NCBI GenBank assembly: GCA_963847045.1
Contig: CAWJYQ010000014.1
Span: 371,573-403,572, forward strand
Origin: an uncultured Alphaproteobacteria bacterium
GTDB lineage: Bacteria > Pseudomonadota > Alphaproteobacteria > Rhizobiales > Xanthobacteraceae
DNA: 32,000 nucleotides
Reading direction: 5' to 3'
Part shown: positions 2,701-24,712 of the stretch, one piece after another
Layout of the letters: each line of letters starts with the position of its first letter
How positions within the stretch are numbered: the first letter of the stretch is position 1
The notes under the pieces: generated by a model
Told to the model about the DNA's origin: nothing
What the model saw: only the letters and a program-made list of their open reading frames with translations
Databases searched by the model: none
Made by a program: the position numbers and the translations under genes

Positions 2701-3423
2701 ATGCGCGCCCACCACGTCATGACCAAGGACGTCATTACCGTGACGCCTCACACCAGCATCGAGGATGCCGCCAAAATCATGCTGCGCACCCATATCAGCG
2801 GCCTGCCGGTCGTGGATGATGCGGGCCAGCTCGTCGGCATCGTCTCGGAGAGCGACTTCCTCCGTCGCAGCGAGATCGGCACCGGCCACAAGCGCCCGAA
2901 ATGGCTGCAATTCTTCATGGGGCCCGGATGGGCGGCCTCGGACTTCGTTCACGAGCGCGGCCGCAAGGTCGAAGACGTGATGACGCAGGATCCGGTCACC
3001 GTCAGCGAAGAGACGCCGCTGGAAGACCTGGTTCGCCTGATGGAAAAGAACGACATCAAGCGGCTGCCGGTGATGAACGGCAAGCAGCTCGTTGGGATCG
3101 TCACCCGCTCCAATTTGCTGCAGGCCGTAGCCTCTATGGCACATGAGATTCCGGACCCGACCGCCGACGACGACCACATCCGCGAACGCATCACCCGCGC
3201 GGTCAATGCCACCGACTGGCGCCCGATCGGCTTCGAAGTTTCGGTCCGCAACGGCGTAGTGCATCTGCACGGCATCATCACCACCGACCAGGCGCGGCAG
3301 GCCACCATCGTCGCCTGCGAGAACACTGCCGGCGTCAAGGAAGTGCACGACCATCTCTGCTTCGTCGACAGCTATTCCGGTTTCTATGTGGAATTGCCGG
3401 AAGACATTAAGCGCGCCGGCTAG
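2701..3423 (+). CDS. CBS-pair domain protein with C-terminal BON domain (240 aa)
   Basis: MRAHHVMTKDVITVTP...GLPVVDDAGQLVGIVSESDFLRR and MTQDPVTVSEETPLEDLVRLMEKNDIKRLPVMNGKQLVGIVTRSNLL form two CBS motifs. VRNGVVHLHGIITTDQARQATIVACENTAGVKEV is BON-like. A GGAGA SD is present. Confidence 0.85.
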   Translation: MRAHHVMTKDVITVTPHTSIEDAAKIMLRTHISGLPVVDDAGQLVGIVSESDFLRRSEIGTGHKRPKWLQFFMGPGWAASDFVHERGRKVEDVMTQDPVTVSEETPLEDLVRLMEKNDIKRLPVMNGKQLVGIVTRSNLLQAVASMAHEIPDPTADDDHIRERITRAVNATDWRPIGFEVSVRNGVVHLHGIITTDQARQATIVACENTAGVKEVHDHLCFVDSYSGFYVELPEDIKRAG

Positions 3424-3466: not shown

Positions 3467-3751
3467 CCGTGCCCGGAAGTCGTCAATCGACCAACCGAAG
3501 CGCGCGAGCCTAGTGCAAAAATCCCTAGCAAATCCTGTCGCGGCAACGCGTGTTTCTAGCGGAAATAGTGCGCTGTAAGCTGCATGTAAGCTTCACATCG
3601 GCATCTGTTCGCATTCGCGAAATCCGGCGCCGACATCTTTTGATCGAGAGCTTTCCGCCGAAACAATCCTTGCGCGATTCTTAGCGGGTCTGCGTTCGTC
3701 GACACCGCCTCGGCGCACTGCGCGCGGCGATTTCTCCACTCAGTCCAAAAA

Positions 3752-3765
3752 TTGATCTGCGTCAA
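3752..3765. promoter_or_regulatory. FixK/FNR-type box TTGATCTGCGTCAA
   Basis: Perfect TTGA-N6-TCAA, centred about 58 bp upstream of the ATG at 3817. Confidence 0.65.
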
Positions 3766-3816
3766 AAAACGATCTTTCGATTCGGCAGATACTGTCTCTC
3801 AAAGGAGGATCCAGAA

Positions 3817-3981
3817 ATGCCGACAGATTCGCTTCTTCTCTCAATCGCCGTGTGCGGCGTGTTCTTGGCCTTCGCCATCGTGGTCGCCGTGATCGATCAC
3901 CGCACCACCAGCTGGCAGCGCAGCAAATCGGCGGACAAGAAGACGGCCGCGGCCGAACCGCCCCGCAAGAAGGCTGCTTGA
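3817..3981 (+). CDS. Small single-pass membrane protein (54 aa), hypothetical
   Basis: Not in the ORF track (<60 aa). AAAGGAGGAT SD lies 6 nt before the ATG. My translation is MPTDSLLLSIAVCGVFLAFAIVVAVIDHRTTSWQRSKSADKKTAAAEPPRKKAA, one hydrophobic helix plus a basic tail. A FixK box lies upstream. Confidence 0.6.
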   Translation: MPTDSLLLSIAVCGVFLAFAIVVAVIDHRTTSWQRSKSADKKTAAAEPPRKKAA

Positions 3982-4037
3982 GCCGGTGAATGCCGAAGGT
4001 TTTGCGTGCGCGCGGTCGGTAGGATGGGAGCAAGTTG

Positions 4038-4241
4038 ATGGCTGATCGGCAAAGCTGGCGACCCATCCTGTTCGAGTGCCCTCAAACCGGCCACAAGGTA
4101 CAGGGTCTGGTGGCCGAGGAGGCATTCGGGGCGAGCGAGCCGCGCTACGAAAGCGTGACCTGCCTCGCCTGTGCCGGAGTTCATTTCTTCGATCCGGCGC
4201 GCGGCACGATAATTGGCGCGCCGCGCAACACCACACGATGA
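4038..4241 (+). CDS. Small zinc-ribbon-like hypothetical protein (67 aa)
   Basis: ORF track 4035..4241 (TTG); the ATG at 4038 is preceded by GGGAG. The sequence contains CPQTG...CLAC, a possible Cys4-type ribbon. Confidence 0.5.
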   Translation: MADRQSWRPILFECPQTGHKVQGLVAEEAFGASEPRYESVTCLACAGVHFFDPARGTIIGAPRNTTR

Positions 4242-4265
4242 TCTCTTGAATGCTTCCCCCGAGGC

Positions 4266-4937
4266 TCAGGCATCCAGCCGGCTGAGCGTGGCGCGGTTGC
4301 AGAAGCGGATCCGCCGCGAGGTCTCCAGCGCGATCGTTCCGGATTGCACGAAGTGCGTGAAGGTGCGCGACACCGTCTCGATGGTCAGTCCCAGATAGTC
4401 GGCGATGTCCTGACGGGACATCGGCAGCTCGACCGCCGTCTGGCTGGCATTGCGGCCGGCCATCTCGAGCAGGAAGCCTGCGACCCGTTCCTCGGCGTTC
4501 TTGATCAGCACCAGCGAATGCTGCTGCACGCGCTGCAGCTCGCGCACCGTCAGCATCCAGAGCTGCTTGGCGAGGCTCTTTTCGTGCTCGGCGCGGGCCA
4601 GCACGCTGGAGCGCTTGACGACCAGGATCTGGACCTCGCTGATCGCTTCCGCCGTCGACTGATGCACGTCGCCGGCCTCGAAGCCGAAGACATCGCCGGG
4701 CAGATAGAACGCACTGATCTGGCGCCTTCCGTCATCGAGCATGCGATAAGTTCGCACGGCGCCTGATATCACTTGGTAAAGATATTCGGCCGGTTCTTCT
4801 TCGCCGTAAATCTCGGCGTTGCGCGCAAAGCGCATCGGGGCGCCGATCATTCCAAGCGGGCCCTCGCATGGGGCACCGGCACGAAGGGGAGCGGCAGGAC
4901 GGGCGAAGATCGGGGAGTTGGGGGCGGGGGCGAGCAT
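4266..4937 (-). CDS. fixK: FixK2-like CRP/FNR-family transcriptional activator (223 aa from ATG 4937)
   Basis: YLYQVISGAVRTYRMLDDGRRQISAFYLPGDVFGFE is a cNMP-like beta-roll. LPMSRQDIADYLGLTIETVSRTF is a CRP/FNR helix-turn-helix. There is no N-terminal FNR Cys cluster, and from memory the sequence closely resembles B. japonicum FixK2. GGAGA lies 7 nt before ATG 4937; the track start at 4955 is a TTG. Confidence 0.9.
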   Translation of the reverse strand: MLAPAPNSPIFARPAAPLRAGAPCEGPLGMIGAPMRFARNAEIYGEEEPAEYLYQVISGAVRTYRMLDDGRRQISAFYLPGDVFGFEAGDVHQSTAEAISEVQILVVKRSSVLARAEHEKSLAKQLWMLTVRELQRVQQHSLVLIKNAEERVAGFLLEMAGRNASQTAVELPMSRQDIADYLGLTIETVSRTFTHFVQSGTIALETSRRIRFCNRATLSRLDA

Positions 4938-5633: not shown

Positions 5634-6859
5634 CCCGGCTCGATCTCGGCTTTCGCCACCTCGGCGGCCGCAAGGTCGCCTGGCTCGGTGTCGAGCTCGC
5701 CGCCCAATCGGGTCCGCGCCGCGTCCCAGATACGGGCGGCAATTTGCGGCTCGCGGTCCATCAGGCTGCGCAAATCCGAAGCATCCAGCGCCAGCAGGCG
5801 CGTCGTTCGCAATGCAACAACGGTCGCGGAGCGCCGCGATTGCCGCAACGCAGCGATCTCGCCGAAGAAATCGCCGGCGCCGAGATGAATGTGCTGGTGG
5901 CGCAGCTTGATCTCGACCTCGCCGTCCACGATCAGATACATCGAATGCGCCGGCTCGCCGCGTCGCGCGATGGTCGCGCCTTTTTCCGCCTTCTGCGCGC
6001 GCAGGATTTTCATGACATCGGCGATCTGGGCGGCGGTGAGCTCGCTGAACAGTGGAATGCGGGCCACCAGCCCCCAGGTCACGACAAAGTCGCGGCGGTG
6101 CACTTCATTGGCGAACGCGGTGGCGACAATGCCGACCGGCAAGGCCACCATCAACAGGCCAACGAAGATGGTGAGCCCCGCCACCAGGCGTCCGGCCGCC
6201 GTGACCGGCACCGCGTCGCCATAGCCGATGGTGCCGAGCGTCACGATCGCCCACCACATCGCATCGGGGAGGGTGCCGAATTTCTCCGGCTGCGTTGCAC
6301 CCTCGACGAGATGCATCAGCGCCGCCGCCATCAAGGTCGCGCCGCACAGGATCACGAAGCAGCCGACCAGCGCGCGGCGCTCGGCGTAAAGCGCCTCCAG
6401 CAGCGAGCGCATCGCCGGCGAATAGCGGGTCAGCTTGAAGAAGCGGATCAGGCGCAGGACCAGGAACGCCTTGAAATCCGCGGCCACGACAAAGGACAGC
6501 CAGAACGGCAGCACCGCGGCGAGGTCGATCAGGCCAGCCGGGCTTGCGATGAAATGCAGGCGCGAGCGGATGGCGCCAAGGCGCCGCCACGGCGGATGTT
6601 CCGCTGCCACCCACAGCCGCGCCGCATATTCGATCGAGAACACCCCCAAGGCGATGGTCTCGATCGCTTCGAAGATTCCGCCATGGGCGGCGGCAAGTCT
6701 CGGCACGGATTCCAGCACCGTCGCCACCAGCGTCACTAGGATCAACGTGATCAGGAACCAGTTGACCAGCACGCTGAGCCCGTCAGCCCCGGAGCCCAAC
6801 TCGAGCACACTATAAAGCCGTTGACGGTATCTCATGACGCGGTGAAGGCGTGTCACCAT
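5630..6859 (-). CDS. Cyclic-nucleotide-regulated K+ channel (MloK1-like: 6-TM ion-transport domain + C-terminal cNMP-binding domain)
   Basis: K+ selectivity filter TLGTIGYGD and an S4-like LVLRLIRFFKLTR are present. The cNMP domain reads GDFFGEIAALRQSRRSATVVA. The start is ambiguous (TTG 6862, ATG 6859, GTG 6856) just after GGTGGAGG. Confidence 0.85.
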   Translation of the reverse strand: MVTRLHRVMRYRQRLYSVLELGSGADGLSVLVNWFLITLILVTLVATVLESVPRLAAAHGGIFEAIETIALGVFSIEYAARLWVAAEHPPWRRLGAIRSRLHFIASPAGLIDLAAVLPFWLSFVVAADFKAFLVLRLIRFFKLTRYSPAMRSLLEALYAERRALVGCFVILCGATLMAAALMHLVEGATQPEKFGTLPDAMWWAIVTLGTIGYGDAVPVTAAGRLVAGLTIFVGLLMVALPVGIVATAFANEVHRRDFVVTWGLVARIPLFSELTAAQIADVMKILRAQKAEKGATIARRGEPAHSMYLIVDGEVEIKLRHQHIHLGAGDFFGEIAALRQSRRSATVVALRTTRLLALDASDLRSLMDREPQIAARIWDAARTRLGGELDTEPGDLAAAEVAKAEIEPG

Positions 6860-15454: not shown

Positions 15455-16639
15455 GTGGTATGGATTGTGGTCATGGTTCGACCACATCCGAATCAAGCTC
15501 TGTCCTCGCTCCGTGTCAAAAACCTATCGGCTCCCGGCCGTTACGCCGACGGAAACGGACTATACCTCGTTGTCGACCCGTCCGGCGCGAAGCGTTGGGT
15601 GCTCCGCACCGTCGTCCAGGGGAAACGTCGCGACATCGGCCTAGGCGGCCTCCGTCTCGTCACTCTGGCCGAGGCGAGAGCGAAAGCCCTCGAATATCGC
15701 AAGCTCGCGCGAGACGGTGGCAACCCGATCGAGCTTCGCCGCAAGGAGAGGATTTAAGTCCCGACGTTCGCTGAGGCGGCGCTCGCCACTCTCGAACAAC
15801 ACCAAGCCGGCTGGCGGAACGAGAAGCACGCGGCGCAATGGATGGCGAGTTTTCGGCTACACATATTCCCCGTGCTGGGCGACAAGCGTGTAGACCAGAT
15901 CGAGACGGCAGACGTTCTCAGGGCTTTGTCCCCCATCTGGCACGCCAAGCCGGAAACCGCTCGCCGCATCCGACAGCGGATATCGACGATCCTGAATTGG
16001 GCAAAGGCCGCCGGTCACCGGACCGGGGACAACCCCGTTGACGGCGTAACCAAGGGGCTGCCGCGCCAGAACGAGAGGCGGACCCACTTCAGCGCCATCC
16101 CCTACGAAGACGTCCCCAAGTTCGTCCGCGACCTGCAGGGCGTCAACACCAACCAGTTTGCGCGACTCGCGTTCGAGTTCCTGATCCTCACGGCCGCGCG
16201 CACCAATGAAGTTTTGAAGGCTCGATGGGACGAGGTGGACTTCATTGGACAAACCTGGACTGTCCCGGCCCACAGAATGAAAGCCGGTCGCGAGCATCGG
16301 GTCCCGTTGTCGCCACGAGCGATGGCATTGCTACAATCGGCTCGGGGGCTGAGGGACGGCTCCTCATTCATCTTTCCGGGCCGGAGCCTTGATGCACCGA
16401 TGTCGAATATGGTCTTCTTGATGTTGTTACGCCGAATGGGGGCGAGTTTCACCGCGCACGGCTTTCGATCGGCGTTTCGCGATTGGGCTTCCGAATGCAC
16501 TAATTTCCCAAGGGAGGTTTGTGAGAAGGCGCTGGCGCATTCGATCAAAGACAAAACCGAAGCCGCTTACCGCCGCGGCGACCTTTTCGCCAAACGTGCA
16601 GAATTGATGACGGCTTGGGCCGACTACGTGGTGGAATAG
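15455..16639 (+). pseudogene. P4-type tyrosine integrase (DUF4102 N-domain + catalytic domain) interrupted by one in-frame TAA at 15755-15757
   Basis: Track ORFs 15455..15757 and 15842..16639 are in the same frame. The 84 nt between them translate in that frame to VPTFAEAALATLEQHQAGWRNEKHAAQW, which is typical P4-integrase sequence. Catalytic residues are present downstream (LTAARTNEV, HGFRSAFRDW, EAAYRRGD). The likely ATG is at 15473. Confidence 0.8.
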
Positions 16640-16783
16640 GTCACCCTTCGGGTGGGACGCGCGTGTCCACGATACAAGAAAACAGAAGTATAGACTGCAC
16701 TGCAACGTAAGGTATCCCTCGATACTCGCCCTTTTTCGCTGACGCCGTCTGCGTAGCCGCCGCTAATTGCTCAAAGGTCCGGT

Positions 16784-17731
16784 ATGTTTCACACTGAACT
16801 TCAGGACATGGTACAGTTGTTGACAGATCAACGTCCGGAGCAATTTCCATACGAGCGAGCGATTAGGTTGTTTCAGTTTCAAGTATGGATGCTTTATCCG
16901 GACCAAAAATTCACTGCGTTAGCCGGCCTTACAGCGGCCACGAAGGTCCTCGACTACATCGCGGATAAAGGTTTTGGAGAGGAACAGGAGCTCAAACAAC
17001 GCTCAACGTATTCATGGCGCGCACCTTTTATTAATCTTTCCGATCGGCCGGCCCAAACCCTAGATATCGTGAGCTCTCACCGAAAGATACGTGGCTATGA
17101 AGCGGTCTATGATACTTTCATAGCCGACCTGGGCGGCTTACCGGCCCTGCTAAACGCACTACCACCATCAGGCCTTGATAAAGAAATCCGCAACAGAATT
17201 GAAAGCTGCTCAGTCGTATCGGACTTAATGCATTATCGCTTGAGATATGCTCTTACGATGGGGCCCAGCGGCAAGGCATCGACCCATCGTCATGCAAAAT
17301 TCTTTGTGTGGTGGCCAACGCGTCAAATGACTGGCCGGAGAGGCGTGAGGATACCGGAAAAGGCTCCCTCGCCAAAAACGATGGATAAATGGTGGAAGGA
17401 ATGGGAACGCACAGCGGTGTTTCTTTTCTTGAACGACCGCTGTGATTTCAAACTATTTCCTGCCGCAGCCGATGACGAACTTTTCGTAGAAAAATTGCTA
17501 ACGGCCGCAAATGACATCGACAAGCTCAAGAGATTTTTCGGGGCTTACGCATTTGTGCGAGAGGCTATTTTCCCTGGCCAGGTTTCGCAGCTCCAAATGA
17601 CTGTACCGGAATCAATTGGCCGCATTCCTCTCCAAGTAGAGCCTTTCACGCCCGATGAATTGGAGATCATCGCCGCGTATAAAGAAAATGGCTTTTTGTT
17701 AGGAAATTATCAGCCTGGAGATGACGACTAG
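16784..17731 (+). CDS. Hypothetical protein (315 aa), no recognisable domain
   Basis: Long ORF in the clearly AT-richer block just downstream of the integrase. Its acidic C-terminus ends ...NYQPGDDD. I recognise no motif. Confidence 0.7.
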   Translation: MFHTELQDMVQLLTDQRPEQFPYERAIRLFQFQVWMLYPDQKFTALAGLTAATKVLDYIADKGFGEEQELKQRSTYSWRAPFINLSDRPAQTLDIVSSHRKIRGYEAVYDTFIADLGGLPALLNALPPSGLDKEIRNRIESCSVVSDLMHYRLRYALTMGPSGKASTHRHAKFFVWWPTRQMTGRRGVRIPEKAPSPKTMDKWWKEWERTAVFLFLNDRCDFKLFPAAADDELFVEKLLTAANDIDKLKRFFGAYAFVREAIFPGQVSQLQMTVPESIGRIPLQVEPFTPDELEIIAAYKENGFLLGNYQPGDDD

Positions 17732-17911
17732 CTCTTCCGTCGCAAACGGCGCGGCGTCTAGAAAGTACCGCTTTCCAGAATGGCCAGCTGGGAAACTCTG
17801 GCTTCACTTTGTCTTCTGAAAGCTCGGAACATACGATCCAACCGTGTCGGGCTTCGTAAAGCGAAGCTCACGTCGCGGGGCGACCCGTACGCAAGCCGAA
17901 AAGTTTGAGGA

Positions 17912-18196
17912 ATGACAATGATAGACACTTTGCCGAGTGTCGGCGACCCGGGCGTTAGGTCCACCAGTGAAAATTCGAGTAACGGCCTTAGGCGACTGAC
18001 CTCTATCATCCAGCCCAACGGTCCCCTCCCCATAGGGAAATCCACCTGGTGGGCTGGTGTGAGATCTGGCCGTTTTCCTGCCCCGGTGAAGCTGGGTCCG
18101 CGCATCACCGCATGGCGTGAGGAGGATATCCGCAGGCTTATTGAAAACGGCATTCCGAGAAGTGACCCGGTAACCCGGGGCGGAGGCCGGTCATGA
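17912..18196 (+). CDS. alpA: AlpA-family phage/island transcriptional regulator (excisionase-like HTH), 94 aa
   Basis: LPIGKSTWWAGVRSGRFPAPVKLGPRITAWREEDIRRLIE is the AlpA/MerR-like HTH signature. A GAGGA SD is present. Confidence 0.8.
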   Translation: MTMIDTLPSVGDPGVRSTSENSSNGLRRLTSIIQPNGPLPIGKSTWWAGVRSGRFPAPVKLGPRITAWREEDIRRLIENGIPRSDPVTRGGGRS

Positions 18197-18630
18197 ACCG
18201 CGAAGACCCTGAGGCGATCGAGCCGAATTTCCCCGGCGGGGAAATTTCGAGCCAGGACGTGGGCAACCCGGCCACAATCGAGCCGGAGGCATGCGCCGAA
18301 CAGTTCTTGAAGCACCGCGCGGCCAGCCTCACCGAGGAAGTGATGAGTGGCCTTACGTTTTACGAAGGATACAGAGCCTTCAAAGACGACGACGCCAAGT
18401 TGGAACGGCTCCTCGCTCGTTTGGTGGGCGCCAAAGTTCTCAGCCAAGCCGAGGCCGACGCCGGGCGGCGTGCCAACGACTTGACGGTATCCAAACTGAA
18501 CAAAATAGCGGCGCGCGCGGACGTCATCCTGCACCCGAAAATCCTACCGCTCCTGCAGCCCGGCTACACCGTCCTCTACGAGGTGGCGAAGCTCTACGAT
18601 TTCCTGGAGGAGCACTATGGCCGCGATTGA
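18193..18630 (+). CDS. Hypothetical protein (145 aa)
   Basis: ATGA overlap with the alpA stop and co-oriented in the operon. No recognised domain. Confidence 0.6.
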   Translation: MNREDPEAIEPNFPGGEISSQDVGNPATIEPEACAEQFLKHRAASLTEEVMSGLTFYEGYRAFKDDDAKLERLLARLVGAKVLSQAEADAGRRANDLTVSKLNKIAARADVILHPKILPLLQPGYTVLYEVAKLYDFLEEHYGRD

Positions 18631-19369: not shown

Positions 19370-19850
19370 TCAGTCTCAATCGGCCGATCCGCCCGCCGTG
19401 GCTATTATCGATGACGAAGCCGGCGCCAGCGTCGTCTCAGCAGCACGGGCGGCAGACTTTAAGGTTCGACCTTATCTGGTGACCTTCGGCGAGCGACCGC
19501 GCTATCAGATTCAGCAAATTGCGGGGAAGATCGATGACGAACTTCGCGTGGTCGAACTTCCCACGAAGCGGTTCCCTGCCGACTTCATCAGGCTCGCGGT
19601 CCAGCACCGCTGCTTTGGCAGCGGAGACTTTGAGATCGGACTCGTGGCGATGCACTTGTGTGAAGTCTTGACGGAGCGAGTGATCTGGTTGCCGGTCAGA
19701 GCTCGCCAACCCGGCTGGTCAGCCGCCGTACGCATCGCCAGCGCCTTCGGCAAGACCCTGATCAACCCGTTCATACTGCTGCCGCCCTACATCGTCCTTG
19801 ACGAGCGGGAGCTTGAGAGCGCCCGGCGACGCGACAGACTAGCCAAATGA
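19326..19850 (+). CDS. Hypothetical protein (174 aa)
   Basis: The ATG at 19326 follows CAGGA; the track start at 19287 is a TTG. It overlaps the preceding ORF by 44 nt and has an ATGA overlap with the next gene. Confidence 0.55.
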   Translation: MIKDVVRLLTDALRDQSQSADPPAVAIIDDEAGASVVSAARAADFKVRPYLVTFGERPRYQIQQIAGKIDDELRVVELPTKRFPADFIRLAVQHRCFGSGDFEIGLVAMHLCEVLTERVIWLPVRARQPGWSAAVRIASAFGKTLINPFILLPPYIVLDERELESARRRDRLAK

Positions 19851-20473
19851 CCTATGATGTATTGGTAAAGATCAGACAGCGCTTCCGCGCTCTGTTGATC
19901 GATCCAAAAGTCAACAGTCGGCGTCCCAAGTGTCGTTCGGTCGCCGAACTCTGCGCCTTCTGGGCGAGGAAAGCGCGCGGGACCGACGAGGTTGTGCCAA
20001 TCTTTACACGTGAGCGTGCACTCGTCAGATCGGCCATCGAGGTGTACCGACCCTACACAATGGCAGACGTCCGTCAGCGAGCCGCGCGGAAGGCCTTCGT
20101 GGTCTGCTCGCTCTTCTCCGGCGCGGGCGGGTCATGTCTCGGCTATCAACTCGCCGGTGGCGACGTACGCCTCGTCGTCGAGTTCAGCCCTAGCGCGGCC
20201 GGCTCTTATCGACGTAACAACCGGTACACCGTCGTCGAGCGGCGAGACATCAGGAGCATCCTAGCGACGGAGGACGGTGTCGAGACCGCGCTCTGGAGAG
20301 TAGGCTTGCGACCGGGCGACCTCGATCTGTTGGATGCCTCGCCGCCGTGCACCGAGTTCAGCCTGGGTGGCGCCGGCATCGGCGACCAGTCGAAGCCGAA
20401 GGTGTCAATCGGCGTTGGAGTGGGACCCCCTATCGGCATCCAAAAGGGTCACCCGCCGGAGCTCATCCTGTAG
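19847..20473 (+). pseudogene. C5-cytosine DNA methyltransferase, N-terminal half only (motifs I-IV), truncated near 20400
   Basis: Motif I LFSGAGG, motif II-like VVEFSPSAAGSY, DIRSI, motif IV ASPPCTEFS. Motifs VI (ENV), VIII and X, and the target-recognition domain, are absent. The last ~70 nt of the ORF are antisense to a convergent gene. Confidence 0.7.
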
Positions 20474-20728
20474 TCGTTCCAAAGTCTTGGAGACCCAGGC
20501 GATCTCCGCACTGACCTCCTCGGGAGCGCGGTCATAGCAGACAATCGGACCGTACAGTTGCCTGCTTAGCGAGGGGTACAAATCGATCGTCTTGTCGATC
20601 AATTTATAAGCCAGCCCACAGGCCGTCGCGTCCGGCACTTGGATTGCCGAAATGGCTACATGCAATAGTTGACCGATGATATCGCGGACCCTCTGGTCGG
20701 GGGTGTGGATACCAAACGTGTTGGCCAT
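20405..20728 (-). CDS. Hypothetical protein (107 aa from ATG 20728)
   Basis: MANTFGIHTPDQRVRDIIGQLLHVAISAIQ... Third-position G+C is about 70% by my hand count, supporting this frame. The longer track ORF (to 20878) has an implausible N-terminus. Confidence 0.45.
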   Translation of the reverse strand: MANTFGIHTPDQRVRDIIGQLLHVAISAIQVPDATACGLAYKLIDKTIDLYPSLSRQLYGPIVCYDRAPEEVSAEIAWVSKTLERLQDELRRVTLLDADRGSHSNAD

Positions 20729-20771
20729 CGCGTCTTCATAACGCGAACAGAGAACAAGCTGGTTGAGTGAG

Positions 20772-21008
20772 ATGGAGTTCGATACCCTCCACTTTTGGAT
20801 TCTCGACCGGCAAAGAACGATCGGACGGGTGCGGGTCTTGATGGAAAAGTTCGACCGGCAGTCGCTCCCCTGGTTCATAGTGGATTTTCAGCTCGGCACT
20901 AGCGGGAGGTGGTTGGTCCATTGGGTGGTGCCTTTCATGTCTAGGAAGAGCACAAGGCTCACCACTCGATTACTACCTGGCATTTTCAGCATCAGGGCGT
21001 CGAGGTAG
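20772..21008 (+). CDS. Hypothetical protein (78 aa)
   Basis: MEFDTLHFWILDRQRTIGRVRVLMEKFDRQSLPWFIVDF... Third-position G+C (about 70% by hand) is higher than for the competing minus-strand Pro-rich ORF 20736..20921 (about 50%). Confidence 0.35.
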   Translation: MEFDTLHFWILDRQRTIGRVRVLMEKFDRQSLPWFIVDFQLGTSGRWLVHWVVPFMSRKSTRLTTRLLPGIFSIRASR

Positions 21009-21254
21009 CGGCCATTTGGCGGTCATCCAAGTTTTTCTGTCGCAGTGAATTTGCCGACTTGCGCTAGCCGACGGCGCTATTCCAGCAGCGCATCCGCACG
21101 GATTATTTCCGCGATGAAGCTCCCTGTGGCGAGTTCTGACCACGTGGGCTCGCATCGCACTGTCGCACGGTCCAGCGAACGAAGATCGACGAGATTTGAG
21201 CCCCGAGATCTCGACAAAGGTTGGTCAGCAAGCGCGGCGACTGCTTGTTTGGCT

Positions 21255-21836
21255 CTAGACCAACTCCACGACCCGGAGCTGCGCCTCCGGATTCGCGTCG
21301 ATGTACGCCTGCGTAGTGCGGATGGAGGAGTGGCCGGCCAGCTGCTGCACGTCCCGGAGCGATCCGCCGACAGTCGATATCTTTCGTGCAGCGTTGGTTA
21401 TAAAAGTTCTTCGGCCACTGTGGCTGGAGCAGCCATAGAACCCCAGGTGCCGGTACCAACGATGAAACATGTTGACGATCACTTGGGGCGAGGTCCGCAG
21501 GCCACGCTCGGTGCCGATGACGTGCGGACCGGCGTGGGGCCCCGTATCTCGATACTCGACCAGGGCGCTCCTGACCTCGTCGGTCAACGGGATCGTTCGA
21601 CCGGACTTACCCTTGCTGGCGGAGTCGAAGACGTTGAGGGCGCGTGCGATGTTGCCCTCGGAGTTGTTTGTCATACGCCACGTCAGGCCGGCGATCTCCT
21701 TGGCCCGGAGGCCGGCCTTGACCGACAGCAGGAAGATCAACCTGTTTCTCTTGGCGTGTCTGGTGCTGGCCAAGTAGCCCAACACGGCCTCGATCTGTCC
21801 CTTGGTGAGGGTCTTCGCTTGCTTACCCAGCGGCAT
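21255..21836 (-). CDS. Short tyrosine recombinase, catalytic domain only (193 aa)
   Basis: The R...HxxR...H...Y set is present: GLRAKEIAGL, SSHSGRRTFIT, LAGHSSIRTTQAYI. There is no N-terminal SAM-like/arm-binding domain. A GAGGAGGA SD is present. Confidence 0.85.
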   Translation of the reverse strand: MPLGKQAKTLTKGQIEAVLGYLASTRHAKRNRLIFLLSVKAGLRAKEIAGLTWRMTNNSEGNIARALNVFDSASKGKSGRTIPLTDEVRSALVEYRDTGPHAGPHVIGTERGLRTSPQVIVNMFHRWYRHLGFYGCSSHSGRRTFITNAARKISTVGGSLRDVQQLAGHSSIRTTQAYIDANPEAQLRVVELV

Positions 21837-21839
21837 CTT

Positions 21840-21877
21840 CGTCCTCCTCGACCCGATACTTATCGGGCGGCAGGACG
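21840..21877 (-). promoter_or_regulatory. Compound hairpin/palindrome in the recombinase leader that overlaps its SD
   Basis: The minus-strand mRNA reads CGUCCUgccgCCCGAUAagUAUCGGGucgaGGAGGACGaagAUG. The inner stem is a perfect 7-bp palindrome (21852-21867). The outer 6-bp arms are CGTCCT/AGGACG, and the 3' arm lies inside the SD. Confidence 0.5.
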
Positions 21878-21961
21878 CTGGATTGTAACTGGTTATGGAG
21901 GGACGTACACAGTGACGCAGGCATGTTATCAGTTACGGCCGGCCGCTGCAGGAGATGAGTT

Positions 21962-22414
21962 GTGACTGAGTTGAAGAAGGTAGCGAGAGAACGGGAACGG
22001 GTCGCTAACCTCTATGCCGATCTGATCGCTTCGCCGCTTATAAAATTCCCGTCCAAGGGTCTCGTCGCTCCGATGCAGCAGGGCGTTTACGTCATCTATG
22101 GACCAAACGGAAAGGCCCTGCATGTTGGCTCAACGCCGAGCGGGCTTCAGGGAATTTGGCAGCGACTCAGAAACCACCTGCACAAGGCGTCATCATTCAC
22201 CCTTATACACCTAAAGGGCGACGGTGCATGGTTGCGGAAGGGGTGCGGGTTTCGGTGCTTGGTCGTCACAAATCACAGGCTGCGCGCGTTGTTAGAACAT
22301 TACGCCATCGGCCATCTGTGTCCCGCGCATCTCGGGATACATAACAAGGGTAATAGGTCGTCGCTTTCGGTAGCGACGGAACGGCGTATCGTCCGTATGA
22401 GGGCCGGCATTTGA
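21962..22414 (+). CDS. GIY-YIG-superfamily nuclease-like protein (150 aa)
   Basis: GVYVIYGPNGKALHVGSTPSGLQGIWQRLRNHL fits GIY-x(8-10)-YIG...R...H. A later RALLEHYAIGHLCP could supply the conserved Glu. The GTG start lies 6 nt after GGAGA. Confidence 0.6.
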   Translation: MTELKKVARERERVANLYADLIASPLIKFPSKGLVAPMQQGVYVIYGPNGKALHVGSTPSGLQGIWQRLRNHLHKASSFTLIHLKGDGAWLRKGCGFRCLVVTNHRLRALLEHYAIGHLCPAHLGIHNKGNRSSLSVATERRIVRMRAGI

Positions 22415-22773
22415 GCGTACCGGGACTGAACGAGCTGATGGACGTACTCTCAGAATGGGCATCCGGCGCACCTGTCACGGTGTACCTATATGGAAGTCGA
22501 GTGCGTGGTGATCACAAGCCTAACAGCGACGTCGACTTGTATATTCAATATGTGAAGGGCCAAGAAGCTTCTGGTGACGAATGGTACGATAGGCAAACGG
22601 CCGACAATTACTCGGAGCTGAGGCCAAAGTTACCCGGACCTCTAGTAAAGGTGATGCCGCCGTTCGGCGCCCCCCACCCATTCATTTTCCATCCCCATGA
22701 AGTCGCCCGAAGGGGAAATGTGGTGGCGCTTTATACGCCGCCAAAACTGGGGCGGAAGGGCGCGCCGAACTAG
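22411..22773 (+). CDS. Minimal nucleotidyltransferase (MNT, Pol-beta superfamily), 120 aa
   Basis: VYLYGSRVRGDHKPNSDVDLYI is the G-S-x(9-10)-D-x-D NTase signature. The TTG start overlaps the upstream stop (TTGA); an alternative ATG is at 22438. Confidence 0.7.
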   Translation: MSVPGLNELMDVLSEWASGAPVTVYLYGSRVRGDHKPNSDVDLYIQYVKGQEASGDEWYDRQTADNYSELRPKLPGPLVKVMPPFGAPHPFIFHPHEVARRGNVVALYTPPKLGRKGAPN

Positions 22774-22906
22774 TCGATTATATTGACGCCGCGAGCCGCT
22801 TTAAGCCGTGTGCAATAGCGGCGCTCGACTCACTCGACCGGCCATGTACAGATTCATCCGTCCAGTTATGATGGCGCGGGTTTGTCCCAACCACGGAGAA
22901 CCCCGC

Positions 22907-23335
22907 ATGCCAGTCCTCAAGTCACTGTCCTTCACCGCGCTTCCAAAGCCCAACAACGACATCGTCCAGATTCGGCGGACCAACTTCGTCGCCAAGCTGG
23001 AGGAGCAGAAACAGCTCCTGAAAGACCCAAACCACATCCGGACCACCCAGCGGTGGACCAAGGTCAACGGCGAGCGGCAGGCCACCACCAAGCAGCAGGC
23101 CGTTCGCCCATGGTGGAAGACCGACCCGTCCGGTCAGGTCGTGATGTCGATGAAGTTCGGCTCCAAACCCATCGAGTTCGAGAAGGGCAAGGCTGGCATC
23201 GTCGTCGGCACGAAGGAAAAGCTTCCGGCGGTCATCGACGCCCTGATCGCCGCGGTCCGGTCCGGCGAACTGGACGAGCTTTTCAGCCAGGCCGCCAAGG
23301 CCGCCGCGGTCGGCAAGTCCCGGAAGGCCGCTTGA
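22907..23335 (+). CDS. Conserved island-associated hypothetical protein (142 aa; possibly DUF6641-like)
   Basis: The ATG at 22907 follows GGAGA. MPVLKSLSFTALPKPNNDIVQIRRTNFVAKLEEQKQLL...RPWWKTDPSGQVVMSMKFGSKPIEFEKGKAGIVV resembles a family I recall from integrative elements. The family name is from memory only. Confidence 0.6.
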   Translation: MPVLKSLSFTALPKPNNDIVQIRRTNFVAKLEEQKQLLKDPNHIRTTQRWTKVNGERQATTKQQAVRPWWKTDPSGQVVMSMKFGSKPIEFEKGKAGIVVGTKEKLPAVIDALIAAVRSGELDELFSQAAKAAAVGKSRKAA

Positions 23336-23459
23336 TCATCAGTCGGGCCGGGTGGCGAACATGGGCATCCGGCCCACCCCCTATCCGGTCTCGTCTGGAC
23401 GACTACAGACAACCCTGCCGACGGATAGGATGAACATAAGGGCCGCCGCTTGAGAAGGG

Positions 23460-23699
23460 TCAGTCGGCCTTCCTTCTCGATCCTGACCGAGTTGGGCGAC
23501 GGAAGAAGTCGACAGGGTCCACCTCCAGGACTTCGGCCAACTTCCCCACGATCTCCAACCCCACGTAGGTCACCGCCCGCTCGACCCGGCTCAGGTAGGC
23601 CCGGTCCACCCCCGCGTCGTGAGCCAGCCCCTCCTGGGACACCCCCCGCTGGTGCCGGATGCGTCTGAGGTTGGTCGCGAATCGCTGGCGTAGGTCCAT
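23460..23699 (-). CDS. XRE-family (Cro/C1-type HTH) transcriptional regulator, 79 aa
   Basis: MDLRQRFATNLRRIRHQRGVSQEGLAHDAGVDRAYLSRVERAVTYVGLEIVGKLAEVLEVDPVDFF is a canonical HTH_3 pattern. Confidence 0.85.
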   Translation of the reverse strand: MDLRQRFATNLRRIRHQRGVSQEGLAHDAGVDRAYLSRVERAVTYVGLEIVGKLAEVLEVDPVDFFRRPTRSGSRRKAD

Positions 23700-23731
23700 G
23701 TACGCAACCAACCTGCCTGTGGTTTAATGGC

Positions 23732-23757
23732 CCACGGCTTTAAAGCCTCAACCGTGG
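23732..23757. promoter_or_regulatory. Nested palindrome in the divergent XRE / membrane-protein promoter region (candidate operator)
   Basis: CCACGG-CTTTAAAGCCTCAA-CCGTGG contains the perfect 12-bp palindrome GGCTTTAAAGCC (23736-23747). It lies 33 bp from the XRE ATG and 11 bp from the membrane-gene ATG. Confidence 0.5.
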
Positions 23758-23767
23758 GGAAACTAAG

Positions 23768-24196
23768 ATGCTGAACTATTTCTCGGGCAGTTTGGACAAC
23801 TGGATGGCGCTCAAGGTCGTCGCGGTATTGGTCCCGGTGCTGACGTTCGTTTGGATCATCGTGACTGTAATGGCCCTTCACAGGCGGGACGTCTATTTCT
23901 GGAGCCTCGGATCGACCTGGACCAGCGTCATTACCTGTCCCATTGCCTCGGTCATCATGTCGCTGAGCACTACCAGCCAACTGCACGACTCGAACGCGCC
24001 GGTCTTCGAGGTGCCCATCATGGCGGGAGCCGTTCTTTACGTCGCTGCGTTCGCCTTCGCGATCGTCTATAACTTCAAGGCAACTAACTCGGCGATCTTA
24101 GCCATCAGCACGGGCATGCTGCAGCAGCTCGCGGTCCTGGGGGTGATATTCCTCTTCCTCAGATGGAGGGGCAACGAGGTGAACCGCGGCCGGTAA
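23768..24196 (+). CDS. Four-TM membrane protein (142 aa), hypothetical
   Basis: Four hydrophobic stretches: ALKVVAVLVPVLTFVWIIVTVMAL, WTSVITCPIASVIMSL, IMAGAVLYVAAFAFAIVY, AILAISTGMLQQLAVLGVIFLFL. It sits in a lower-G+C block and has a GGGGA SD. Confidence 0.7.
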   Translation: MLNYFSGSLDNWMALKVVAVLVPVLTFVWIIVTVMALHRRDVYFWSLGSTWTSVITCPIASVIMSLSTTSQLHDSNAPVFEVPIMAGAVLYVAAFAFAIVYNFKATNSAILAISTGMLQQLAVLGVIFLFLRWRGNEVNRGR

Positions 24197-24235
24197 GAAT
24201 TTGGCCGCGCTCCAAGGTGCAAGCGAGGAAAGCAC

Positions 24236-24406
24236 ATGGCTTCGGATACCGAGATCAAGTGTGAATCATGCAATGGCACCGGGTTTCCGAAGGTTGCACA
24301 GCCTGCCGCCTCCGGAAAAAGGATTTACCCTGCACCATGCAAGAAATGCGGGGGCAAAGGCCGAATAAAGATTACTCCAAAGACATCGTCTCTGGACGAC
24401 AACTAA
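24236..24406 (+). CDS. DnaJ-type CxxCxGxG mini zinc-finger protein (56 aa)
   Basis: Not in the ORF track. A GAGGA SD lies 6 nt before the ATG. My translation is MASDTEIKCESCNGTGFPKVAQPAASGKRIYPAPCKKCGGKGRIKITPKTSSLDDN, with two CxxCxGxG repeats. Confidence 0.6.
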   Translation: MASDTEIKCESCNGTGFPKVAQPAASGKRIYPAPCKKCGGKGRIKITPKTSSLDDN

Positions 24407-24712
24407 GAATGTGCTGCTCCCAATGGGGGCGCAACATCCTAGAACGGCAAGGCCGGCCGCGGACGTCGCGATCGGTAGCGCAGTGCGGTCGCGCGGCTTC
24501 AGCGCCTGGTCGCTCCAGACGCACCTCATGCGAAGGCAGTGAGCAGCTCCTGCGCATCGCCAAACCTTCGTCATAGGTTGCTTGGTCCGTCGATGCCTGC
24601 CCTATCTTCGTTGAATGCGTGAGCGAGGAGCCTAGCCAGAAATTACGCAAGGCCCTATCATCAAGGCTACCGCCCGGAAAGACAATCGGCGGACGACCAG
24701 GAGGAGTCAATC

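Follow-up and report, generated by a model that had tools for sequence, protein, structure and literature searches.

A pair of overlapping genes in an alphaproteobacterial genomic island

We analysed a 32,000 nt stretch of DNA, here called the window, from contig CAWJYQ010000014.1 of an uncultured alphaproteobacterium of the family Xanthobacteraceae (assembly GCA_963847045.1, positions 371,573 to 403,572). The window carries two overlapping genes, referred to here as A and B. The product of A has the predicted fold of a GIY-YIG nuclease, and that of B is a predicted minimal nucleotidyltransferase (MNT) of the Pol-beta superfamily. An earlier note, made from the letters of the window, had put the pair forward as a candidate toxin–antitoxin (TA) or defence module. 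Both open reading frames (ORFs) were found where that note had placed them, sharing the tetranucleotide TTGA (Table 1). The motifs that it quoted are also present, but the spacings were wrong: they read GVYVIY-x5-ALHVGST in A (not x7) and GSRVRGD-x5-DVDL in B (not x6). The start codon of A, GTG in the window, is ATG at the equivalent position of another locus, L002.

Table 1. Coordinates of the A/B cassette and of surrounding features in the 32,000 nt window
Feature	Position	Strand	Remarks
ORF A	21962-22414	+	GTG start; 150 aa; predicted GIY-YIG nuclease fold
ORF B	22411-22773	+	TTG start; 120 aa; predicted Pol-beta-type MNT, active site G28-S29...D40-V-D42
A/B overlap TTGA	22411-22414	+	TTG start of B inside TGA stop of A; point of translational coupling
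AGGAG, Shine-Dalgarno-like string	21950-21954	+	7 nt 5' of the GTG of A
GAGGG, Shine-Dalgarno-like string	22399-22403	+	7 nt 5' of the TTG of B
Tail of A, codons 127-150	22340-22411	+	Subclade-specific; last ~45 nt are the region upstream of B
Tyrosine recombinase	21255-21836	-	193 aa, catalytic domain only; divergent from A; Pfam Phage_integrase E = 3.9e-22; context, not core
DUF6641 / phrog_31551 protein	22808-23335	+	Between B and the XRE gene; context, not core
XRE-family helix-turn-helix (HTH) regulator	23460-23711	-	Pfam HTH_31 E = 4e-12; context, not core
Integrase	15842-16636		
C-5 methylase fragment	19847-20470		~1.5 kb upstream of A

Gene A encodes a small protein with a predicted GIY-YIG fold

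The A protein consists of an N-terminal helix (residues 2-23), a GIY-YIG core (about residues 40-125) and a C-terminal tail (residues 127-150). A scored 15.9 bits against the Pfam GIY-YIG model (PF01541), under the cut-off of 22.6, had no match in NCBIfam, and gave only noise when the single sequence was searched against the Protein Data Bank (PDB). Among 40 relatives of A, 25 matched PF01541 singly, with E-values of up to 0.1 (best 2e-5). A profile of the A family found the N-terminal domains of UvrC as its best PDB matches at E = 0.11, a value that is suggestive only. The alignment pairs GVY with the GVY of UvrC, HVG with YIG, and RLRNH with RLRSY.

The AlphaFold2 model of A (predicted local distance difference test, pLDDT, 87; predicted template modelling score, pTM, 0.78) combines a three-stranded antiparallel sheet with flanking helices in a mixed alpha/beta fold. 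In a Foldseek search of this model against the PDB, GIY-YIG nucleases accounted for all of the 14 best matches and for 23 of the best 24, the exception being the N-terminal domain of a plant glutaredoxin at rank 15. The matches included the N-terminal domain of UvrC, R.Eco29kI (over 144-149 columns), I-TevI, T4 EndoII, Hpy188I and PD-T4-3, with a Foldseek probability of 1.0 for UvrC and Eco29kI.

Conservation of the catalytic motifs was read from an alignment of 40 members of the A family, in which G41, V42, Y43, G56 and R68 are invariant, and H54, V55, H72 and E112 are at least 90% conserved. The first motif (GIY), which holds the catalytic Tyr, is present as G41-V42-Y43. The second motif (YIG) is not present as such; its place is taken by H54-V55-G56, which retains the glycine and the strand but has His for Tyr. 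Members of the GIY-YIG superfamily vary at this Tyr, and the His of A is consequently a variant and not a reason for exclusion. The remaining catalytic elements, an Arg with His or Tyr at +4 and a catalytic Glu, are represented by R68, H72 and E112. I-TevI (R27/H31) and Eco29kI (R104/H108) carry the same Arg-x3-His element as the RLRNH string of A. The predicted structure, its fold matches and the conserved catalytic residues therefore support the initial description of A as a GIY-YIG-type protein, and indicate a divergent, stand-alone GIY-YIG nuclease by fold, with the catalytic motif set. Such a protein would be expected to cleave DNA in a metal-dependent manner.

The earlier note had added the caveat that A might be a divergent HEPN RNase, which would make the pair an ordinary HEPN-MNT module in unusual gene order. 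Nothing speaks for this beyond the string RLRNHLH, which loosely fits the HEPN motif Rx4-6H. However, RLRNH is the R-x3-H element of the GIY-YIG proteins, with R68 and H72 aligned with the R-x3-Y of UvrC, and the mixed alpha/beta model with its sheet is not an all-alpha bundle. Because the fold matches are to GIY-YIG nucleases and no HEPN protein occurs among the 50 fold matches listed for A, we reject the caveat. On structure prediction and fold search, a HEPN protein in disguise is next to impossible.

A belongs to a large family. A word-indexed search found 83 relatives, and an exhaustive profile search extended the family to 518 clusters (50% identity), of which 319 have E <= 1e-10. The domain occurs once in each of the best 150 matches, all of which are small proteins of about 90-240 aa. 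Searches of PADLOC and PHROGs gave sub-threshold matches only, among them UzuA, for which 35 residues about the GIY motif aligned (13.9 bits, E = 0.007). Pairwise ratios of non-synonymous to synonymous substitution (dN/dS) were 0.04-0.12 for the core of A.

Gene B encodes a predicted minimal nucleotidyltransferase

B exceeded the Pfam cut-offs for both NTP_transf_2 (PF01909; 32.4 bits, cut-off 21) and Polbeta (PF18765; 31.4 bits, cut-off 26.9), in agreement with its earlier identification as an MNT. The active-site sequence Y-G28-S29-R-V-R-G-D-H-K-P-N-S-D40-V-D42-L conforms to the pattern hG[GS]-x9-13-Dh[DE]h, and G28, S29, D40 and D42 are shared without exception by 13 sequences of the B family. 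E97, at least 90% conserved and located in strand 96-101, is a candidate third carboxylate, for which the structural matches are weak.

A profile of the B family found the minimal nucleotidyltransferases 2rff and 1wot as its best PDB matches, at E about 1e-5. The AlphaFold2 model of B (pLDDT 83) gave only weak nucleotidyltransferase matches in Foldseek (HI0073, MNT antitoxins, AadA, CdnE and terminal uridylyltransferases; best E = 0.036, TM <= 0.43). The C-terminal half of the protein is divergent, with a Pro-rich loop and a beta-hairpin carrying R100-x2-N103-V104. B scored 27.3 bits against the NCBIfam model for MntA (NF047752), well short of the cut-off of 60 and over the motif region only, and is thus not an MntA equivalog. 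Its other matches (ANT, HalB and PDC-S09) likewise covered the motif alone, PDC-S09 being below the PADLOC threshold.

Twelve close and more than 140 metagenomic relatives of B were found. Pairwise dN/dS for B was mostly 0.06-0.15, rising to 0.23 against locus L042. The relatives of both genes and their low pairwise dN/dS indicate that A and B are real genes under strong purifying selection, and not chance ORFs. By its sequence, B is a genuine MNT of the Pol-beta superfamily, and would be expected to transfer nucleoside monophosphates.

The two genes are joined by a conserved junction and a lineage-specific tail

The TTTGA junction, preceded by GAGGG, is invariant in eight lineages, including those in which one of the two genes has decayed. 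Synonymous divergence (dS) between the window and L002 exceeds 1.6, near saturation, yet the overlap is retained. The proposal that A and B are translationally coupled is well served by an overlap that is unchanged across eight lineages.

The 24-residue C-terminal tail of A is found only in the subclade in which B is, or formerly was, present; in the alignment, none of the A-family members without an MNT possesses it. The tail is modelled as a low-confidence helix (pLDDT 52-73). Where A has been deleted (L136 and L042), the last ~45 nt of the tail always stay with B, which indicates that this segment doubles as the initiation region of B. Among intact pairs, the dN/dS of the tail is 0.10-0.20, a value drawn from 24 codons only, in which constraint on the protein and on the nucleotide sequence are indistinguishable.

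A 16-nt direct repeat (14/16 identical) was also observed, with one copy at 21979-21994, at the 5' end of A (encoding VARERE), and the other at 22369-22384, in the tail before B (encoding VATERR). The repeat could be due to chance, or could be a trace of the origin of the tail.

The cassette is mobile as a unit and has a single origin

The arrangement seen in the window was found at other loci. B lies directly downstream of A, with the same overlap, in L040 (A 91% and B 94% identical) and in contigs of several different samples that encode P0003, a protein 82% identical to A. At least two further A/B protein pairs are encoded on contigs of equal size. The gene upstream of the cassette is a tyrosine recombinase in the window and in L040, and a SEC-C protein in L002; upstream of the cassette or its remnant, L132 has an HWE kinase and L136 a RelE/HTH pair. 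This confirms the occurrence of the cassette amid different flanking genes. Nucleotide homology to the other copies extends from the start codon of A to the stop codon of B, and with its flanks differing, the pair behaves as a unit.

The pairing has a narrow distribution. At 33 genome loci with tail-less relatives of A (37-61% identity, about 125-135 aa), there was neither a B gene nor a conserved neighbour. Profile hidden Markov models (HMMs) run against all ORFs of 137 loci detected co-occurrence of GIY-YIG and MNT genes only in the tailed subclade or in its remnants, and independent unions of the two families were found nowhere outside that subclade. The tailed subclade is represented by one sequence (P0002) among the approximately 500 clusters of the A family. 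The expectation, set beforehand, that the two families would be recurrent neighbours was therefore not borne out at family level: the association arose a single time, in a small subclade. When neighbouring ORFs were clustered all against all, no conserved third gene or methylase emerged around relatives of A or of B, and the annotated neighbourhoods of solitary A genes consist of mobile-element or variable cargo.

Relatives of A were also seen in three viral contigs, in variable contexts. In one (L124), a solitary relative lies between a large caspase-like/FGE-type ORF (183-2072) and an ORF (5996-6835) that carries a C-terminal HEPN-like motif, 'RLRNNIVH'; the assignments in L124 were made by eye from translations. 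In L130, a solitary relative of A is positioned at the edge of a prophage-like block.

Either gene can be lost while the other is conserved

Decay of the cassette has proceeded in both directions. A is intact and B lost in L001, where B is frameshifted, in L006, where B is gone after four codons and a repeat stands in its place, and in L132-134, where 42 codons of B are left in three samples. Conversely, B is intact and A lost in L042 (internal deletions in A), L135 (A frameshifted) and L136/137 (only the last 17 codons of A left). Both genes have decayed in L054, which carries two inverted cassette copies (2729-3369 and 3726-4364) ~360 bp apart, each with A and B frameshifted. The surviving lone gene, whether A or B, retains its catalytic residues. 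It should be noted that single frameshifts in metagenomic contigs may be assembly errors, and that genomes with a lost B may hold a second copy of B elsewhere.

Three losses of B beside an intact A imply that A needs no B for the viability of the cell, whereas in an addictive pair an intact toxin should not survive the loss of its antitoxin. Together with the solitary state of the wider A family, which has no conserved partner, they argue against a classical addictive TA system, and the toxin–antitoxin logic of the initial proposal is contradicted by these losses and by the three losses of A.

Two of the decayed loci have further features. The repeat of L006 (5452-5664, 5775-6008 and 6450-6644), which translates as '..SVARMSEAISGS.YFHGP..', occurs on both sides of the intact A gene, and looks like a dispersed element of the repetitive extragenic palindromic (REP) or miniature inverted-repeat transposable element (MITE) type. 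In L136 (2000-3148), the B-only copy lies ~100 nt after a pair of RelE and HTH_3 genes, with Fic and DUF4238 genes nearby, a neighbourhood that looks like a TA or defence-type island.

Relatives of B are coupled to other partners

Other MNT genes of the clade of B are coupled to upstream genes of a different kind. In three contigs (L091, at 1279-2096, and also L090 and L092), an ORF of the SNase family overlaps the start of a downstream MNT by ATGA. The SNase ORF of L091 scored 27 bits against Pfam SNase (cut-off 21), and its coupled MNT is 35% identical to B. In L055 (914-1737), a weakly HEPN-like ORF has a 4-nt overlap with the start of the downstream MNT. ORFs of this type are about 125-150 aa long; the L055 ORF, with the string '...KQHDL...', scored 14.8 bits against Pfam HEPN, under the cut-off of 22, and had no match in the PDB by sequence. 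In L071 (951-1594) and in L077, a similar ORF precedes the MNT at a distance of ~12 nt. In L061, an 88-aa ORF with an Acb2/Tad1 hairpin domain (4359-4625; 35.6 bits) follows 17 nt after an MNT that is 45% identical to B. Acb2 and Tad1 are anti-CBASS and anti-Thoeris sponge families.

Genomic setting of the cassette in the window

The earlier picture of an island locus was largely accurate: a recombinase lies upstream, an XRE gene downstream, the G+C content is lowered (0.56-0.59 around the cassette versus about 0.62-0.67 across much of the window) and an integrase is present. However, B is not adjacent to the XRE gene, from which it is separated by the gene for the DUF6641 protein. Housekeeping-type genes start again near 24.7 kb of the window. 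None of the three nearby genes is a constant companion. The recombinase accompanies the cassette in L040 only; DUF6641 homologues adjoin it in L040 and lie within 5 kb in L001, with none in L002 and the other loci; and an XRE homologue occurs only in L001, ~1.4 kb from the cassette. The XRE protein was considered as an antitoxin-like partner (cf. Xress-MNTss, PMC8406773), but this idea found no support: the DUF6641 gene intervenes, the XRE gene lies on the minus strand, opposite to B, and it recurs in L001 alone.

Of the 324 positions of the C-5 cytosine DNA methylase profile, the methylase ORF matches only 3-84, the N-terminal quarter; the ORF is probably what is left of a restriction-modification system that has decayed within the island. 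The recombinase has the size of a Fim-type invertase, yet scored 22 bits against that NCBIfam model. A weak 21-nt inverted repeat (76% complementary; 21710-21944) spans the 5' end of the recombinase gene and the promoter region of A. Behind the integrase, the region 16500-18500 has a G+C content of 0.51, with ORFs of 315 and 258 aa that lack a Pfam match. Terminal repeats around the cassette were limited to short, weak ones, and a promoter and terminator scan gave counts no higher than in shuffled sequence. A search of a plasmid collection with window positions 20500-24500 returned no match.

A tentative model for the function of the cassette

The explanation that we favour, at a probability of only about 0.35, is that the pair is a non-addictive cassette for conflict between mobile elements, in which the role of B is to modify or tune the nuclease A. 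The cassette would be a compact two-gene cargo on mobile elements of soil Alphaproteobacteria. We propose that a small GIY-YIG gene, of a kind that normally stands alone, once had an MNT gene welded onto its 3' end, an event that would have given A its 24-residue tail and created the TTGA start/stop overlap. A would act as the effector, a Mg-dependent DNA endonuclease, and coupling would keep B in fixed proportion to A. B, supplied with NTP, would nucleotidylylate A, with Tyr43 of the active site or a Ser/Thr of the tail as possible targets, and so tune or restrain it. The module could serve in defence or in conflict between elements, and its control would be facultative and not addictive, in that either protein persists, conserved, without the other.

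The possibility that A is the substrate of B is raised by analogy with type VII systems, in which MntA AMPylates HepT (PMC7641770, PMC11586414), and this analogy gains a little from the other coupled partners, SNase and weakly HEPN-like, in the same MNT clade. The intact predicted folds and active sites, the retained overlap, the mobility of the unit, the B-linked tail and the island setting are all consistent with a functional pair. We also consider a broader version, which seems unlikely: the MNTs of this clade would serve as interchangeable regulators that act by covalent modification and have been paired anew with nucleases whose folds are unrelated (GIY-YIG, SNase and HEPN-like), and B would nucleotidylylate a DNA endonuclease.

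Several observations weigh against the proposed regulation of A by B. The sequences indicate that the A-B pairing is narrow and arose once, in the tailed subclade, so that the genes could have remained adjacent through inertia. Elsewhere, both families are solitary and without a conserved neighbour: even profile HMMs revealed no MNT-like ORF at 42 other A-family loci and no A-like ORF at about 75 other MNT loci (metagenomic and viral, 31-48% identity to B). B has been lost three times while A stayed intact, and its score lies far below the MntA equivalog cut-off. In addition, the 3' half of the tail may be conserved as the nucleotide initiation region of B, and not as protein.

The main rival, which we hold doubtful yet only slightly less probable than our own model, is that A and B are two functionally independent accessory genes that were joined by one insertion accident. 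It accounts equally well for an association that arose once, for families that are otherwise solitary and for decay that has struck both genes alike. An MNT gene with its leader would have landed at the 3' end of the nuclease gene, read-through would have produced the tail and the TTGA, and, with no intergenic space between them, the two genes would have stayed and moved together. Two independent, dispensable genes would be expected to decay in this way, with B lost three times, A lost as often and one locus where neither is intact; each gene alone retains its catalytic residues, and the 3' part of the tail acts as the upstream region of B. Mere accident is harder to reconcile with an overlap and two reading frames held under strong purifying selection beyond synonymous saturation, with the recurrence of the cassette amid different flanks, with the low tail dN/dS of intact pairs (a small sample), and with the recurrence of MNTs of this clade as second genes, coupled by 4 nt, behind other nuclease-type partners. 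A classical type VII-like system, with A as a growth-arresting toxin and B as an indispensable AMPylating antitoxin, would account for an overlapping, mobile two-gene cassette in an island, for the MNT chemistry predicted from the sequence of B, and has a precedent in HepT/MntA (PMC7641770). We regard it as quite improbable, given three independent lineages with a conserved, intact A and a destroyed B, an A family of about 500 clusters without a conserved partner, the low MntA score of B, and a gene order opposite to that of typical MntA-HepT loci.

It is also conceivable, although more improbable still, that B does not act on A at all. GIY-YIG cleavage leaves 3'-OH ends, and B might extend such nucleic-acid ends at nicks made by A; alternatively, B might make a CBASS-like signal that switches A on. 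CdnE and terminal uridylyltransferases are among the Foldseek matches of B, but these matches are weak, B has no nucleic-acid-binding extension, and A, which comprises only a helix, the core and a short tail, has no recognizable nucleotide-sensor domain. In favour of a signal, phage nucleotidyltransferases close to MNTs are reported to make cyclic dinucleotides, with the suggestion that bacterial MNTs may do so too (preprint 10.1101/2022.06.09.495361). Least credible of the remaining alternatives, and highly improbable in our view, is that A is a restriction or free-standing homing endonuclease with B as irrelevant cargo. The alignment of R.Eco29kI with the A model over 144-149 columns, the methylase fragment 1.5 kb upstream, and the variable contexts of the A family, viral contigs included, would fit this idea. 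However, the 42 other A-family loci have no conserved methylase or other neighbour, the methylase of the window is a mere fragment beyond a recombinase encoded on the minus strand, and a DNA-binding domain such as homing endonucleases carry is lacking in A.

Comparison with known systems

The full-text literature that we searched describes no GIY-YIG/MNT pair; the earlier note likewise knew of none. Like the HepT/MntA systems of type VII, the cassette is an overlapping, mobile gene pair that combines a minimal Pol-beta nucleotidyltransferase of the GS...DxD type with a small nuclease-fold protein. It differs in that the partner has a predicted GIY-YIG (DNA nuclease) fold and is not a HEPN RNase with Rx4-6H, in that the MNT is the downstream gene and scores below the MntA equivalog, in its apparently non-addictive nature (three losses of B beside an intact A, with the proviso that those genomes may carry B a second time), and in its single, narrow origin, as opposed to the widespread pairing of the type VII families. 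The minimal nucleotidyltransferases of the HI0073/HI0074 and archaeal type (1no5, 2rff and 1wot), which are the best sequence and fold matches of B, all need a separate partner protein. Their partner is HEPN or a substrate-binding helical protein, unlike A, and the C-terminal half of B is divergent from them.

With the stand-alone GIY-YIG proteins (the N-terminal domain of UvrC, I-TevI, R.Eco29kI and T4 EndoII), A shares the predicted fold, Y43, R68 and E112, and its H72 corresponds to the His at R+4 of I-TevI and Eco29kI. A is set apart from them by HVG in place of YIG (His54), a family-specific N-terminal helix, a C-terminal LCPAHLG signature, the lack of DNA-binding or partner domains, and its Pfam score under the cut-off. 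Unlike type II restriction-modification systems such as Eco29kI, A has no adjoining cognate methyltransferase. Uzume, PD-T4-3 and PD-lambda-1 resemble A as small GIY-YIG proteins in variable mobile-element or defence-type neighbourhoods, and PD-T4-3 is one of the fold matches of A; however, these are single-gene systems without a nucleotidyltransferase partner, and the match of A to UzuA is short. We know of no defence activity in the A family.

Significance of the GIY-YIG/MNT pair

If A and B are functionally independent, the locus is a case of ordinary gene adjacency and a cautionary one: a 4-nt overlap, joint mobility and purifying selection can all follow from one fusion event, and the reciprocal pattern of decay would offer a practical test against TA claims. 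If the pair is functional, it represents a variation on the theme of MNTs and their partners. Should B indeed control A, it would be the first minimal nucleotidyltransferase that regulates a nuclease outside the HEPN fold, and would extend enzymatic control in the style of type VII systems from HEPN RNases to a DNA nuclease. Taken with the SNase-MNT pair, this would point to MNTs as modular regulators, exchangeable from one effector to another. Such a role would also provide the first functional handle on the uncharacterized family of small GIY-YIG proteins to which A belongs, about 500 clusters at 50% identity.

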